Shown here: in pieces, positions 26,608 through 31,337 of the stretch
Layout: the number at the start of each line of letters is the position of its first letter
Numbering within the stretch: position 1 is the first letter of the stretch
Sequence record: OZ035785.1
Source: Tequatrovirus BCH953P2
Direction: 5' to 3' (one strand)
Length of the DNA: 64,000 nucleotides
Notes under the pieces: generated by a model
Told to the model about the DNA's origin: nothing
Database searches by the model: none
What the model saw: only the letters and a program-made list of their open reading frames with translations
Position numbers and translations under genes: made by a program

Positions 26608-26610
26608 CAA

Positions 26611-26640
26611 TGGGGACCTTTCGGTCCCCATATTTTTATT
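26611..26640. terminator. Bidirectional terminator between convergent gene 54 and the alt.-3 position ORF
   Basis: TGGGGACC-TTTC-GGTCCCCA followed by TATTTTTATT. Confidence 0.75.
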
Positions 26641-26926
26641 TACGGAATGAAATAAAAGCAGCAACTGAAGCAACTAAACTGTCTTCAATATAAACCTCAA
26701 TTTTTACCGGAGCTTCTGACTCAAATTTACCTGTTACTACACCTTGGAAAATACTTTCAGTCTGTTCTGGCTTTGAAAAATTTTCAGAAGGAAAAATTCC
26801 GAACTTTTTATCTGTTCCAAAAATTTTGATAAATTCATCGTAAACCGCTTCATTAAAAGCATTATCAGCAGGAATAACGCCTTCAACTGCAAGTTCTTGA
26901 CCCAAAAAGCGCAAAGAAGATTTCAT
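26636..26926 (-). CDS. Hypothetical early protein (T4 alt.-3 position)
   Basis: 96-aa ORF; preceded on the minus strand by a GTTTAC...TATAGT promoter-like module and a GAGGA SD. Confidence 0.7.
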   Translation of the reverse strand: MKSSLRFLGQELAVEGVIPADNAFNEAVYDEFIKIFGTDKKFGIFPSENFSKPEQTESIFQGVVTGKFESEAPVKIEVYIEDSLVASVAAFISFRK

Positions 26927-26933
26927 TTTGTGT

Positions 26934-26987
26934 TCCTCATGTTATGTCAGTAAGACTACTATAACACAACACGAGGGACTTGTAAAC
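26934..26987 (-). promoter_or_regulatory. Early-promoter-like module plus leader (copy A), upstream of the alt.-3 position ORF
   Basis: Minus-strand GTTTAC, 18-nt spacer, TATAGT, then GAGGA SD; 54 bp identical to 42361..42414. Confidence 0.6.
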
Positions 26988-29044
26988 TACATTTTGAACT
27001 TTTTAGACATTCCGTTGATGTTAACCAAAGAAGTCAAGATTTGAGAAACTTCGTTTTCCTCTTCTTTTGATTCTTCTACAAGGAATTGATTAAATCCAGC
27101 CATTGGACGAACTTCGCCAGTTTCCATTAAATGGTCGCCGTCATATACCGATTCCTCTAATTGTTCAGAAGGAGGAACGATTGTACCTTCGATTAGATAC
27201 TTGTTATAAGCAGTTTCTTTCATAAAGTAAGTACTTACTTTATTAATCTTCAGTAAAATTCCACGTGGTAGAATAACTTCAGCTTCTGATGGAAATCCTG
27301 ATAAATGACCTGGAACGATAACTTTGATTCGCTCAGCTCCTTTAATTACCATACCCACGCTAGTTTCAGCATCTTCATTAGCATACGTAGAATGACTACC
27401 CATATGCATCAAATCTTCTGCATCAACGGAACCTTCTCCTTCACCAGAAAATACTGCGCCGGAATCATCTAGAGCCATATAGTTTTTACCATGCTCACCG
27501 AAGATATTTGGTTTAAGCGATGTAGATACGAAGTTCTTGAAATAGAACATTTTGTTTTCAATGTTATGACGCAAAGTTTTAAAGGTAACTTCTTGCCCAC
27601 GATAAAGAGTAGTTCCTGGAGGAAGAACTGAACCTTTAGCAAATGCAGAATCCAACGTCTCGATGTGTTTAATAGCTCGTTCCATATATTCTTCACGGGT
27701 AGAATCAGGTTTACCTAAAAGGAACGAGTTCATTTCAACATATGAATCTGCACAATAATCTTCAATTACATCAGACTCAGCCTGAGTTAATCCTTTTGGA
27801 GTTACTTCAGTGCTTGCGTATTCATATGCCTGAGCGGCAGATTCATTAATCAATTTATAAATGCCATTCATGACAAATTGAATAATAGCTGTCTTTTCAT
27901 CTGGTGTAGCTTTAGAACCTTTAACTAAATCATTGATAATTTTCTTAATAACATCAAAGCTATTAGAAATATTAATGTCAGCAAGATCGCTTAAAATTTT
28001 ATCAGTTTTATAATCAAAGAATTCTTTATTCTTTAAATATTCTTGAGAACCTTGATATGTTATATCGCTCTGCAACTTGATAGATGGATCACGTAAACGT
28101 GCATGGGCTAATGCAATATGATTTCGGAAACTTTCTAGTTCATAATCGTTAGATTTAAAACGAGAAGCACTTCTCATACCACCGATAGCTCCTTTGCTAA
28201 AGTTTGAACCAATCTGAATAACGCCAGAGTTCATCGGACCTTCTGCTTTATATACCGGAACTTTAGATTCAAACTCTTGATATTTCTTGGCAGCGAAGCT
28301 ATCACCCTGAAGTGAAGCATCAACAGTAGAATATTGAGCTTGTGCTGCTAATCGACGACTAATTTTAGTTTTCTGAATAACAGCTTGATCCGTGCGCTTA
28401 TCATTTTCTAAAGCAATAGAAGCAGCAACAGCGACAGCTTTAGGAACAGCATTACCTGTTTTAACGTCTACATAAACATCACCAACCTTTGATTCAACTT
28501 TTGTGAATAACTCAGTTGAAATAGGAGGTACACCTGGAATGTCTTCTAAATTGGCATTTTTACGGTAAACCATAATATATGCGTACTTTTTATCGTAATC
28601 CCAGATTTCCTTTAAAAGAACATATCGACCTGCTCCTTTAGTACGTACTAAACGGTCAGCAATAACTTGCATTTGACGAGCAGCGCCATTTGTTTTACTC
28701 TTTAGTACACGGAATAAGCACGCGTCAATTTTATACTGCTTCATTGTTTGAAGAGCAGTATCAAAAACAGCATTAATGACGCCAATTGGATTTCCACCCA
28801 AGTTTTTAAGCTTAACCAGTGATAATTTCTCGTTGACACCTATCATTACAATATGCATCATTTTATCGCCTGGCTTAACGTTTTTATTTGTATCACCGCC
28901 AGAGGTATATGTACAAAATCTAAATCCAGGAAGCACGCTTTCTTCGCCGGCTTGAATAGCAAAAATTTGAGGTATTTTATGCTTAGGATTTAAGTTAACA
29001 ACCGGCGCCGAAGCGCCGTCAAATAATTCTGTAATAAGTTCCAT
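26987..29044 (-). CDS. Alt-like ADP-ribosyltransferase paralog (full length)
   Basis: 685 aa; same N-terminus (MELITELFD) and conserved C-terminus (YDGDHLMETGEV) as the adjacent Alt; ART R-S-E signature LYRGQ / FVSTS / EAEVILPRG. Confidence 0.85.
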   Translation of the reverse strand: MELITELFDGASAPVVNLNPKHKIPQIFAIQAGEESVLPGFRFCTYTSGGDTNKNVKPGDKMMHIVMIGVNEKLSLVKLKNLGGNPIGVINAVFDTALQTMKQYKIDACLFRVLKSKTNGAARQMQVIADRLVRTKGAGRYVLLKEIWDYDKKYAYIMVYRKNANLEDIPGVPPISTELFTKVESKVGDVYVDVKTGNAVPKAVAVAASIALENDKRTDQAVIQKTKISRRLAAQAQYSTVDASLQGDSFAAKKYQEFESKVPVYKAEGPMNSGVIQIGSNFSKGAIGGMRSASRFKSNDYELESFRNHIALAHARLRDPSIKLQSDITYQGSQEYLKNKEFFDYKTDKILSDLADINISNSFDVIKKIINDLVKGSKATPDEKTAIIQFVMNGIYKLINESAAQAYEYASTEVTPKGLTQAESDVIEDYCADSYVEMNSFLLGKPDSTREEYMERAIKHIETLDSAFAKGSVLPPGTTLYRGQEVTFKTLRHNIENKMFYFKNFVSTSLKPNIFGEHGKNYMALDDSGAVFSGEGEGSVDAEDLMHMGSHSTYANEDAETSVGMVIKGAERIKVIVPGHLSGFPSEAEVILPRGILLKINKVSTYFMKETAYNKYLIEGTIVPPSEQLEESVYDGDHLMETGEVRPMAGFNQFLVEESKEEENEVSQILTSLVNINGMSKKFKM

Positions 29045-29047
29045 GAT

Positions 29048-31099
29048 TTATCCTTGAACGAACTTGTAAGGCATGTTTGCAATATCTATGCAAGACGCAA
29101 TAATTCCAAGAGATGATTCTACTTTCTGTTTAACATTTGATGAAACAAATGATGCAAAGTCAACTCTATCTTCTATATCACCTGTCATTGCAACTACTTC
29201 GCCGGTTTCCATTAAACGGTCTCCGTCATAAATTACCGATTCGGTGAGTTCTTCTGTGGTCATAACTTCAGCTTGAATAAGCTTGTTGTTAGTTTTAACT
29301 GTTCCATCATTGTAAGATGCATCGGTTATTTTATTAACTTTGACCATTAATCCACGTGGCAAAATGACTTCCATTTCATTTGAAGGCGCTAAACTTCCAC
29401 CGGGTAAAACAACATTGACCTTATCAGCCCCAGTAATAACCCATCCAATTCCAACTAAATTATCGCTAGAATTTACTAGTCCTTCATCAGTTTTATCAAT
29501 AGAAACACTTAGACGCTTTTCGTCTGGTAAAACACCTATAGATGAATCAGTCATCCAAGTACCAAAAATATTTGGATATAATGATGTTGACACAAAGTTT
29601 CTAAAATAAAAAACTCGATTTTTTACCATTGCTTCGTATATTGAAGGTAACATTCGTTGTGAACGATACAAAGTAATACCTTTTGGTAATCGTTCACCAT
29701 TTTTAAAGGCTGAATCTAAATTATCAATGGCTTGTTCTATTTCAGGTGCTGTTAAAATACTTGTACGCTCATCTGGATTATATAATCCCAAAAGAGCATT
29801 ATTCATGTCTACGTATCCTGAACCTACATATTCACGAATTCCGCGTTTTTGCGCTGGTGTGTATTTAGATGAATCTTTATTTTCGACTATAGGATGTAAT
29901 GACCATCCAGCGGTAAGAGCATATCCACGTAATTCTCTTCGAATAATCTTTGTTTTTATTGCATTCCAAGAATTTTGTACTAACTCATTTGCAGCATCTT
30001 GGTTTAAATGCGAATGTTTGTTAATATTTCTTTCAAACCAAGCACCTTTATATTTTTCTAAAGTATCATCGACGATAGAAGCAATAGTTTCTAAAGTTTT
30101 TATTGAAGTAATAGATTCTTTTCGTAATTTTTCTAAAGCTTTATTTTTTATTTCTGCATTAATAATGGATTCTTTATCTTCAGGAATTATAGAAGCTTCT
30201 CTGAATGCCATCCCAGCTGTAATACTGCTAAGAGCATTCTCTAGTGCAAATCCTGAAGTAGAAATTACCGTTAATTCATTAGAATCAGAAATTAAAGGCG
30301 CGTCCGCTGGTTTATTTAATTCTGCCGCTGAAGCCTCAAATTTTTGAAACATCGGTGTTTCAAATCTAGAAGATTCCAATGACTGACTTTGTGCAATTGC
30401 TCTACGGGAAATTTTAACTTTAACGATTACAGCTTGGTCAGAACGTTTATCGTTTTCTTGTGCAATTGATGCTGCAATTGCCTCATTTTTAGTTACTTGG
30501 GCTCCAGTATCTTTATTGATATAAACATCACCGACTTTCGATTCAACTTTAGTAAAGAGCTCGGTACTAATTTCCGGAACTCCTGGAATGTCTTCTAGTG
30601 ATACATTTTTGCGATGTATAAGAATATATGCATACTTTTTATCGTAATCCCAGAGTTCCTTAAGAAGGACGTATCTGCCACCTGAACGACTACGGATAAG
30701 TCTATCAGCAATAACTTGAATTTGTCGAGCTTGGCCAGCAGTTTTAGACTTAAGAATACGAAGCATACAAGCATCAATTTTATATTGACGCATTGTTTGC
30801 ATTGCAACAGTAAAAACTGAATTGATATAATTAATTGGGCTTGGACCAAGACCTTTCAATTTAGCAATTGAACCTTTAGCAGTTAATGTAAAAGGAACAA
30901 TATGCATCATTTTATCGCCCATTTTTAAATCGCGATTAGTATCACCTCCAGATGTATAGGTACATAAACGAAAGCCTGGCTGTTCAATTGCATCATCAAC
31001 GTGAACTGAAAAAATTTGCGGTATTTTCTTCTTTGGATTTAAGTTTGTAATCGGAAGAGTAGTATCTTCGTCAAATAATTCTGTAATAAGTTCCATCAT
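29048..31099 (-). CDS. alt: Alt ADP-ribosyltransferase (packaged internal head protein)
   Basis: 683 aa; N-terminus and overall sequence match T4 Alt as recalled; ART motifs LYRSQ / FVSTS / EMEVILPRG; late promoter on the minus strand upstream. Confidence 0.9.
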   Translation of the reverse strand: MMELITELFDEDTTLPITNLNPKKKIPQIFSVHVDDAIEQPGFRLCTYTSGGDTNRDLKMGDKMMHIVPFTLTAKGSIAKLKGLGPSPINYINSVFTVAMQTMRQYKIDACMLRILKSKTAGQARQIQVIADRLIRSRSGGRYVLLKELWDYDKKYAYILIHRKNVSLEDIPGVPEISTELFTKVESKVGDVYINKDTGAQVTKNEAIAASIAQENDKRSDQAVIVKVKISRRAIAQSQSLESSRFETPMFQKFEASAAELNKPADAPLISDSNELTVISTSGFALENALSSITAGMAFREASIIPEDKESIINAEIKNKALEKLRKESITSIKTLETIASIVDDTLEKYKGAWFERNINKHSHLNQDAANELVQNSWNAIKTKIIRRELRGYALTAGWSLHPIVENKDSSKYTPAQKRGIREYVGSGYVDMNNALLGLYNPDERTSILTAPEIEQAIDNLDSAFKNGERLPKGITLYRSQRMLPSIYEAMVKNRVFYFRNFVSTSLYPNIFGTWMTDSSIGVLPDEKRLSVSIDKTDEGLVNSSDNLVGIGWVITGADKVNVVLPGGSLAPSNEMEVILPRGLMVKVNKITDASYNDGTVKTNNKLIQAEVMTTEELTESVIYDGDRLMETGEVVAMTGDIEDRVDFASFVSSNVKQKVESSLGIIASCIDIANMPYKFVQG

Positions 31100-31119
31100 A
31101 GCCTCTCTAGTGTTTATTC

Positions 31120-31127
31120 TATTTATA
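31120..31127 (-). promoter_or_regulatory. T4-type late promoter for alt (minus strand)
   Basis: Plus-strand TATTTATA (minus-strand TATAAATA) about 20 nt upstream of the alt ATG. Confidence 0.65.
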
Positions 31128-31133
31128 AAATTA

Positions 31134-31150
31134 AAGGCCCGAAGGCCTTT
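31134..31150 (-). terminator. Hairpin after the 62-aa ORF downstream of ligase
   Basis: AAGGCC-CGAA-GGCCTT overlapping the ORF stop. Confidence 0.5.
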
Positions 31151-31337
31151 AGTAATCTAGTGGTAAGAGAGTACGATATATTTCAAACTTTGGTCCTTTT
31201 TCATAGGCATCAAATGTTTCTGTAAATTTATTATAAGCATATGCATCTACAAATTCGAGAATGACTTGTGATACAGAAGTAGAAACATCTCCACCTTCTT
31301 TTTGAGCAATGACAATTGTTTCTAAGTAAGCTTTCAT
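31149..31337 (-). CDS. Small hypothetical protein translationally coupled to DNA ligase
   Basis: 62-aa ORF whose ATG overlaps the ligase stop (ATGA); followed by a terminator hairpin. Confidence 0.6.
   Translation of the reverse strand: MKAYLETIVIAQKEGGDVSTSVSQVILEFVDAYAYNKFTETFDAYEKGPKFEIYRTLLPLDY

Follow-up and report, generated by a model that had tools for sequence, protein, structure and literature searches.

The window analysed here is a 64,000-nucleotide stretch of DNA from Tequatrovirus BCH953P2 (sequence record OZ035785.1), and it carries two long, adjacent open reading frames (ORFs) related to T4 Alt (gpAlt, NP_049811), an NAD+--arginine ADP-ribosyltransferase (ART) that is packaged in the phage head. 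An original prediction, made from the sequence, had placed these ORFs at 26987..29044 (685 aa) and 29048..31099 (683 aa), both on the minus strand and separated by 3 nucleotides (29045..29047), and the ORF list of the window agrees with it exactly. We refer to the ligase-proximal long ORF as Alt1 and to the other as Alt2.

Two intact Alt-type genes in tandem

The region around the pair is part of a T4-like (Tequatrovirus) genome. Neighbouring ORFs on the plus strand translate to gp29, gp48 and gp54 in the gene order of T4, and the minus-strand order, which also matches T4, is alt.-3 (DUF5498), the two long ORFs, alt.1, DNA ligase gp30, 30.1 and 30.2. Both genes therefore sit where Alt-type genes are found, on the leftward strand between alt.1/gene 30 and alt.-3/gene 54.

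29048..31096, minus strand: Alt1, ortholog of T4 alt, 682 aa, with the same flanking genes as in T4; the longest ORF runs to 31099 (683 aa, one additional Met)
26987..29044, minus strand: Alt2, intact paralog, 685 aa plus stop (a 2,058-nucleotide gene), in the position of T4 alt.-1/alt.-2

At 98.5-99% identity to T4 Alt, Alt1 also has the same neighbouring genes, the same candidate promoter box and the same terminator-like hairpin as its T4 counterpart. Its longest ORF opens MMELIT, and the sequence GAGAGG lies 5 nucleotides from the second ATG and 2 nucleotides from the first. The ATGATG is also present in T4 alt, whose annotation begins at the second ATG. Because both the Shine-Dalgarno spacing and the T4 annotation point there, Alt1 probably starts at the second ATG (31096) and not at the first (31099). 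The Alt2 ORF is intact, as had been suggested, with neither a stop nor a frameshift in the sequence. Both ORFs are full-length genes for Alt-family ARTs of the R-S-E type, as judged by BLASTP, PF03496, phrog_802 and the catalytic residues. The phrog_802 profile ("Alt-like RNA polymerase ADP-ribosyltransferase") matches both proteins end to end, covering residues 1-685 of Alt2 with E = 6e-256.

The paralogs share their ends and differ in the centre

Alt1 and Alt2 are 41% identical overall (BLASTP, E = 4e-162), and this identity is unevenly distributed. In blocks of 30 alignment columns it reaches 53-80% over aa 1-238, falls to 10-23% with many gaps over aa ~240-420, and lies between these values in the ART domain. 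An hhalign comparison based on small family alignments shows that the N domains (probability 100%, E = 2e-108) and the ART domains (probability 100%, E = 3e-51) are homologous. Homology of the two centres finds no such support (probability 0.2%), and either extreme divergence or replacement could have produced this result. Pairwise alignment and hhalign thus agree on the strong central divergence that had been noted from the sequence. The domains of Alt2 are as follows:

28331..29044, minus strand: N-terminal alpha/beta domain (aa 1-238), common with Alt1; mean AlphaFold2 confidence (predicted local distance difference test, pLDDT) 85
27785..28330, minus strand: Alt2-specific central helical region (aa 239-420), all-helical in the AlphaFold2 model
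27152..27784, minus strand: ART catalytic domain (aa 421-631), up to the predicted C-terminal gp21 cleavage site
26990..27151, minus strand: predicted C-terminal propeptide (aa 632-685), containing the YDGDHLMETGEV block (27110..27145)

The AlphaFold2 model of the whole of Alt2 has a mean pLDDT of 76 and shows, from N- to C-terminus, an alpha/beta domain, a middle part made up of helices only, the ART domain and a tail of low confidence; the C-terminal propeptide is probably disordered, to judge from this model. Precomputed Pfam assignments place PF26846 ("Tevenvirinae_ADPRT"), which is specific to the Alt N domain, on the corresponding part of homologues. The centre of Alt2 gave a single match among 1.8 billion representatives, and that match is itself an Alt-family protein. 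No NCBIfam model matches Alt1 or Alt2. In a sequence search of the PDB, Alt2 has no match and Alt1 matches CdtA alone, weakly.

Both proteins retain the R-S-E catalytic signature

Both proteins have the ART fold of the R-S-E clade. Pfam PF03496 (ADPrib_exo_Tox) scores 71.9 bits with Alt2 and 118.8 bits with Alt1, in both cases above the gathering cut-off of 23.4 bits. Complete signatures had been predicted for the two ORFs, and a family alignment upholds the order Arg, Ser-Thr-Ser, Glu-x-Glu in each. In an alignment of 27 sequences from both paralog families, R482, S507, S509, E587 and E589 (Alt2 numbering) are invariant, so that neither catalytic Glu has been lost; such a loss would have spoken against the prediction. 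The Arg and the E-x-E also align with CdtA.

27599..27601, minus strand: Alt2 R482
27518..27526, minus strand: Alt2 S507-T-S509
27278..27286, minus strand: Alt2 E587-A-E589
29663..29665, minus strand: Alt1 R478
29582..29590, minus strand: Alt1 S503-T-S505
29369..29377, minus strand: Alt1 E574-M-E576

Arginine-specific ARTs typically carry an E-x-E motif. Substrate recognition by C3/iota-type toxins depends in part on the turn ahead of the catalytic Glu (the ARTT loop). The corresponding residues read GFPSEAE in Alt2 and LAPSNEME in Alt1, which places Phe or Ala, respectively, four residues ahead of the E-x-E. The loop between S-T-S and E-x-E also differs between the paralogs and is modelled with low confidence.

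Toxins of the C3/VIP2/iota type (Vis, 4xzj; C3bot2, 1r45; CPILE-a, 5gtt; Certhrax, 4fxq; VIP2, 1qs1; and CdtA) share the catalytic fold of the Alt proteins along with their R / S-T-S / E-x-E triad. However, they are just 15-26% identical to them, lack the phage N-terminal and central domains as well as the gp21-processed propeptides, and have a shorter insertion between S-T-S and E-x-E.

Processing motifs at both ends

Mass spectrometry has established that the gp21 protease cleaves T4 Alt at ITE-6 and LTE-619 to yield a 68.2-kDa protein (PMC5694885; PMC9026906), with loss of a 63-residue C-terminal propeptide (PMC5694885). The computed mass of Alt1 residues 7-619, 68.2 kDa, equals the published value. 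Motifs for gp21 are present at both ends of Alt1 and of Alt2 at the sequence level:

31079..31081, minus strand: Alt1 ITE-6, codon of the P1 Glu, site as in T4 Alt
29240..29242, minus strand: Alt1 LTE-619, codon of the P1 Glu, site as in T4 Alt
29027..29029, minus strand: Alt2 ITE-6, codon of the P1 Glu, predicted
27152..27154, minus strand: Alt2 LEE-631, codon of the P1 Glu, predicted

The MELITE start of Alt2, corresponding to a 6-residue propeptide, is identical to that of Alt1. At the other end, L-E-E631 aligns with the Alt1 site and E631 is invariant. The predicted mature form of Alt2 has a calculated mass of 69.1 kDa, and the C-terminal propeptide of Alt2 aligns with the one removed from T4 Alt.

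Two blocks had been described at the outset as common to the ORFs. The N-terminal block is as described, since both ORFs open (M)MELITELFD. The C-terminal block is present in both, although it is identical at 11 of 12 positions rather than throughout (YDGDHLMETGEV in Alt2 versus YDGDRLMETGEV in Alt1). Given the cleavage sites of T4 Alt, these blocks represent the N-terminal propeptide and the start of the C-terminal propeptide. They provide the best sequence-level argument for the prediction that Alt2 shares the packaging and processing route of Alt.

T4 has lost most of Alt2

In T4, the position of Alt2 is occupied by the short ORFs alt.-1 (61 aa, NP_049810) and alt.-2 (67 aa, NP_049809), which the T4 record calls an old duplication of the start of alt. 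They share their locus and 5' sequence with Alt2, align near-perfectly with Alt2 residues 1-~55 and 62-117, and belong to families phrog_23015 and phrog_15247, which match Alt2. Two events separate T4 from the window in the Alt2 interval, namely the loss of 1 nucleotide in an A5 run and a 1,699-bp deletion.

28881..28885, minus strand: A5 run (A4 in T4), where the T4 frameshift creates alt.-1/alt.-2
27007..28705, minus strand: segment missing from T4, 1,699 bp (breakpoints by blastn, with a 9-nucleotide overlap, and by alignment)
28697..28705, minus strand: 9-nucleotide direct repeat CTAAAGAGT at one end of the deletion
26998..27006, minus strand: 9-nucleotide direct repeat CTAAAAAGT at the other end

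Thus, the T4 lineage lost Alt2 by a -1 frameshift in the A5 run and a deletion between 9-nucleotide repeats. The gene in the window is not the remnant form, as it keeps the A5 run and the full 2,058 nucleotides. The statement that T4 carries a broken copy as alt.-1/alt.-2 was therefore right as to identity, but that copy is mostly deleted rather than merely broken. It had also been called the upstream paralog; the broken T4 copy, like the 685-aa ORF, is the transcriptionally downstream gene.

One metagenome contig (ENA ERZ28665598, 1319..3375) carries the A5-to-A4 frameshift of T4 together with the linked single-nucleotide polymorphisms of T4, yet keeps a 624-codon downstream ORF. This 624-codon form, which starts at Alt2 M62 and so lacks the N-terminal 61 residues, is represented by 36 database sequences. 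Since the frameshift allele occurs without the deletion, the frameshift may have preceded the deletion. Alternatively, an N-terminally truncated Alt2 that lacks the propeptide may be made from the frameshift allele.

Alt2 is old and under strong constraint

To assess constraint, we compared Alt2 with its orthologs from T2, T6, FL34 and Jbel. The ratio of nonsynonymous to synonymous divergence (dN/dS) is 0.028-0.064, at a dS of 0.08-0.18, and is low in all three domains, a sign of strong purifying selection. When the two paralogs are compared with each other, every segment has saturated synonymous sites, and dN in the N domain is 0.28. This saturation rules out recent gene conversion as the source of the N-domain similarity, which instead reflects constraint.

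The Dhakavirus dhabil carries two tandem Alt genes (QHR72603/QHR72602) between alt.1 and alt.-3, and the Alt of JS10 is counted with this pair. Reciprocal best identities (51% versus 38% and 48% versus 35%), together with the same synteny, identify the dhabil genes as the orthologs of Alt2 and Alt1, and the duplication therefore predates the split between Tequatrovirus and Dhakavirus. On these comparisons the Alt duplication is ancient. The downstream Dhakavirus gene, the Alt2 ortholog, is 51% identical overall and 45-46% identical in the centre; it differs from Alt2 in being strongly diverged, in its length of 707 aa and in a propeptide motif that reads LNE rather than ITE.

Alt1 is mosaic within the genus

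Within Tequatrovirus, Alt1 exists as a T4-type allele, present in the window and in T4, and as a T2/T6/FL34-type allele of 697 aa. The two are 72% identical overall. They are 100% identical over aa 1-240 and at least 93% identical over the last ~70 aa, but identity drops to 10-40% in aa ~270-420 and to 23-73% in the ART core.

29867..30364, minus strand: the part of Alt1 in the window that is especially variable (T2/T6/FL34-type allele compared at 699..2792 of L003/L004/L005)

The alleles differ as if a cassette had been exchanged between conserved flanks. In 173 records the T4-type centre of Alt1 is present at 90% identity or more, and in 414 at less than 60%. Because the Alt1 alleles differ there, the centre and the ART core form the variable module of the family, and it is this same segment that differs between Alt1 and Alt2. 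Unlike Alt1, Alt2 is near-invariant within the genus. We hypothesize from these alignments that the centre and the ART loops make up a target-facing module, and that in Alt2 this module might be aimed at something conserved.

The intact pair is the majority state and was already on record

The Alt2-specific centre (aa 236-420) is uninterrupted in 445 phage records. In 401 of these, T2 and T6 included, it is at least 95% identical. The other 44 carry it at ~45% identity; all four listed records belong to Escherichia phages, and inspection of one identified a Dhakavirus. A further 91 records (T4 strains, RB55, RB59, vB_EcoM_112, slur phages and others) show the contiguous junction of the T4-type deletion. 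With the uninterrupted centre in 445 records and the deletion in 91, the intact pair is the majority state in Tequatrovirus, and T4 represents the minority. The second Alt-like genes of T2 (XUQ83099), T6 (AXN58232) and ~400 other Tequatrovirus records are orthologs of Alt2; they have 685 aa, are 98-99% identical to Alt2, have the same synteny and show essentially no difference from it. T2, T6 and FL34 do differ from the window at Alt1, where they carry the 697-aa allele.

Many records already annotate "Alt-like RNA polymerase ADP-ribosyltransferase" twice, and the T6 record labels the second gene "apparent insertion in alt.-2; also similar to alt". According to Nolan et al. (2006), alt.-1/alt.-2 and ORFs of RB49 and 44RR count among the paralogous duplications of alt, and 44RR carries a full-length one (PMC1524935). 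In a Tequatrovirus, a paper from 2026 describes a pair of Alt-like paralogs that share 43% identity, for which it suggests diverged functions and a wider target range (PMC13600099). In view of these records and of its majority status, the intact pair is already known at the sequence level, and the novelty implied by the original prediction is absent. The suggestion that the two enzymes have different targets, likewise, is one that PMC13600099 had already made.

Across the Straboviridae, the Alt N domain occurs at 1,816 places in 1,201 phage records, with one to three places in each of the records listed. Among those listed, a single place is found in Klebsiella phages and many others; two are found in Tequatrovirus, Citrobacter phage Merlin, Aeromonas phage avDM5 and Acinetobacter phage Ac42, and three in Escherichia phage MX01. 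The varying number of N-domain copies in T4-like phages points to repeated gain and loss.

Candidate expression signals of the pair

Candidate signals for transcription and translation of the two genes, including the single box of the T4 late type that precedes Alt1, are listed below.

31132..31151, minus strand: terminator-like intrinsic hairpin after alt.1, directly ahead of the late promoter box; kept in T4
31120..31127, minus strand: T4-type late promoter box TATAAATA, 5' of Alt1; same architecture in T4
31102..31107, minus strand: Shine-Dalgarno sequence GAGAGG of Alt1; identical in T4
29045..29055, minus strand: Alt1-Alt2 junction, with AAGGA (29051..29055) in the last Alt1 codons, the stop TAA (29048..29050) and the spacer (29045..29047)

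No further TATAAATA occurs between 26987 and 31119, so that the box at 31120..31127 is the sole one of its kind for the pair. A conserved terminator upstream of alt has been described (PMC1524935). The ATG of Alt2 lies at 29042..29044, and the junction is identical in T4 upstream of alt.-1. This arrangement suggests that Alt1 and Alt2 are co-transcribed and translationally coupled.

A second injected ADP-ribosyltransferase?

The account that we consider most likely, with a probability of roughly 0.6, is that Alt2 is an active, packaged ART whose targets differ from those of Alt1. Both genes would be transcribed leftward from the single late promoter, and Alt2 would be translated from its own AAGGA site, with its start 3 nucleotides past the Alt1 stop. 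By sequence and model, each protein comprises a 6-residue propeptide, an N-terminal alpha/beta domain, a helical centre of ~180 aa, a C3/VIP2-like R-S-ExE domain and a C-terminal propeptide. By analogy with T4 Alt, both would be built into the prohead core, where gp21 would trim them at ITE-6 and at the L-x-E site (residue 619 in Alt1, 631 in Alt2) to forms of ~68-69 kDa. The trimmed proteins would then be injected along with the DNA and would use NAD+ to mono-ADP-ribosylate host proteins on arginine residues. Differences in the centre, in the S-T-S/E-x-E loop and in the residues preceding E-x-E might direct the two enzymes to different host proteins. T4 Alt and Alt2 have homologous N and ART domains and share the catalytic residues along with the gp21 motifs at either end, whereas they differ in overall sequence (41% identity), in a central ~180 aa that lacks detectable homology, in the S-T-S loop and in the residues ahead of E-x-E. 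The idea of Alt2 as a further injected effector, acting on a set of host targets different from that of Alt, is put forward tentatively, as something possible rather than probable.

Several points weigh against this account. Among ~500 related phage records, 91 lack Alt2, including T4; phages can therefore do without Alt2 on laboratory hosts, as would also be expected if it were redundant. The central region has no recognisable fold relatives, and its part in targeting is something we infer. The box TATAAATA occurs 19 times in the window against 8.7 expected by chance, such that a single match is no proof of a promoter. Alt2 appears to have no promoter of its own and would rely on read-through, which makes its expression level uncertain. 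Finally, we found no report on the function of Alt2 or on its presence in virion proteomes in the literature searched, and neither that literature nor the present analysis offers direct evidence for its production, packaging, cleavage, catalysis or targets.

The loss of Alt2 from T4 and 90 other records is what would be expected if Alt2 were a redundant back-up, that is, an active and packaged ART acting on the targets of Alt1 (for example, Arg265 of the RNA polymerase alpha subunit) and contributing dosage or robustness only. The homologous ART domains and the common type of E-x-E catalytic motif are in keeping with such a role. However, both copies have been kept since before Tequatrovirus and Dhakavirus separated, with saturated dS and unrelated centres, whereas pure redundancy is seldom maintained at a dN/dS of 0.03-0.06. 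The loops adjacent to the active site differ as well, and we regard redundancy as unlikely.

It is less probable still that Alt2 is not injected, either because, although expressed late, it remains in the cell that makes it or because it serves mainly as a non-catalytic component of the head core. The missing proteomic record of Alt2 in virions in the literature searched would suit this idea, and the persistence of the 624-codon ORF without the propeptide in 36 database sequences hints that the rest of the protein could work without packaging. Nevertheless, the N-terminal propeptide, the N domain, the C-terminal L-x-E site and the C-terminal propeptide block are all conserved with Alt1, and the invariant R/STS/ExE residues argue against a purely structural Alt2.

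That Alt2 is a decaying duplicate, as in T4, or a misassembled repeat of alt is effectively refuted: T4 shows that the locus can decay and databases hold truncated calls of 415-624 aa, but the 685-codon ORF is intact with a dN/dS of 0.03-0.06, Alt2 recurs at 95% identity or more in 401 independent phage records with diverged orthologs in 44 others, and assembly collapse or duplication is impossible between paralogs that share just 41% identity.

If Alt1 and Alt2 do have distinct targets, half of the natural ART repertoire injected by T-even phages would have escaped decades of T4-based studies of "alteration". T4 serves as the standard for phage take-over of the host by ADP-ribosylation but carries a deletion at the alt locus, and most of its relatives, T2 and T6 included, encode a second, strongly conserved Alt-family enzyme that is catalytically complete by sequence. 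Alt2 is more strongly conserved than Alt itself: it stays at least 95% identical across ~400 genomes, whereas Alt1 exchanges cassettes. Alt2 might act on a conserved host function, or on a defence system missing from laboratory E. coli; the latter would explain why T4 tolerates the loss of Alt2. Because it combines a T4-type Alt (98.5%) with an intact Alt2, the phage of the window is a natural near-isogenic counterpart of T4 for studying the role of Alt2. We see the finding as a pointer for experiments rather than a discovery, as the duplication has been on record since the annotation of the T4 genome and the pair is annotated in hundreds of genomes.

Neighbouring features

A 206-aa ORF on the plus strand (29727..30347) runs antisense to the central region of Alt1 and is long for a genome of 36% G+C. 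It has neither a PHROG match nor a T4 annotation and is probably spurious. The other features that flank the pair are:

31149..31337, minus strand: alt.1, 62 aa, matching the recent Pfam family PF24647 ("Phage_blade", E = 1.9e-29)
26958..26986, minus strand: early-type promoter-like site (TTTACA-17-TATAGT) that follows immediately on the Alt2 stop and serves alt.-3
26636..26926, minus strand: alt.-3, the downstream neighbour, 96 aa, DUF5498 (Pfam PF17602, E = 7.6e-64), in synteny with T4
26610..26631, no strand assigned: bidirectional terminator hairpin between alt.-3 and gene 54, which closes the leftward unit

In T4, mutants with a C-terminal extension of Alt.-3 escape the CmdTAC ADP-ribosyltransferase defence system (PMC11618068).

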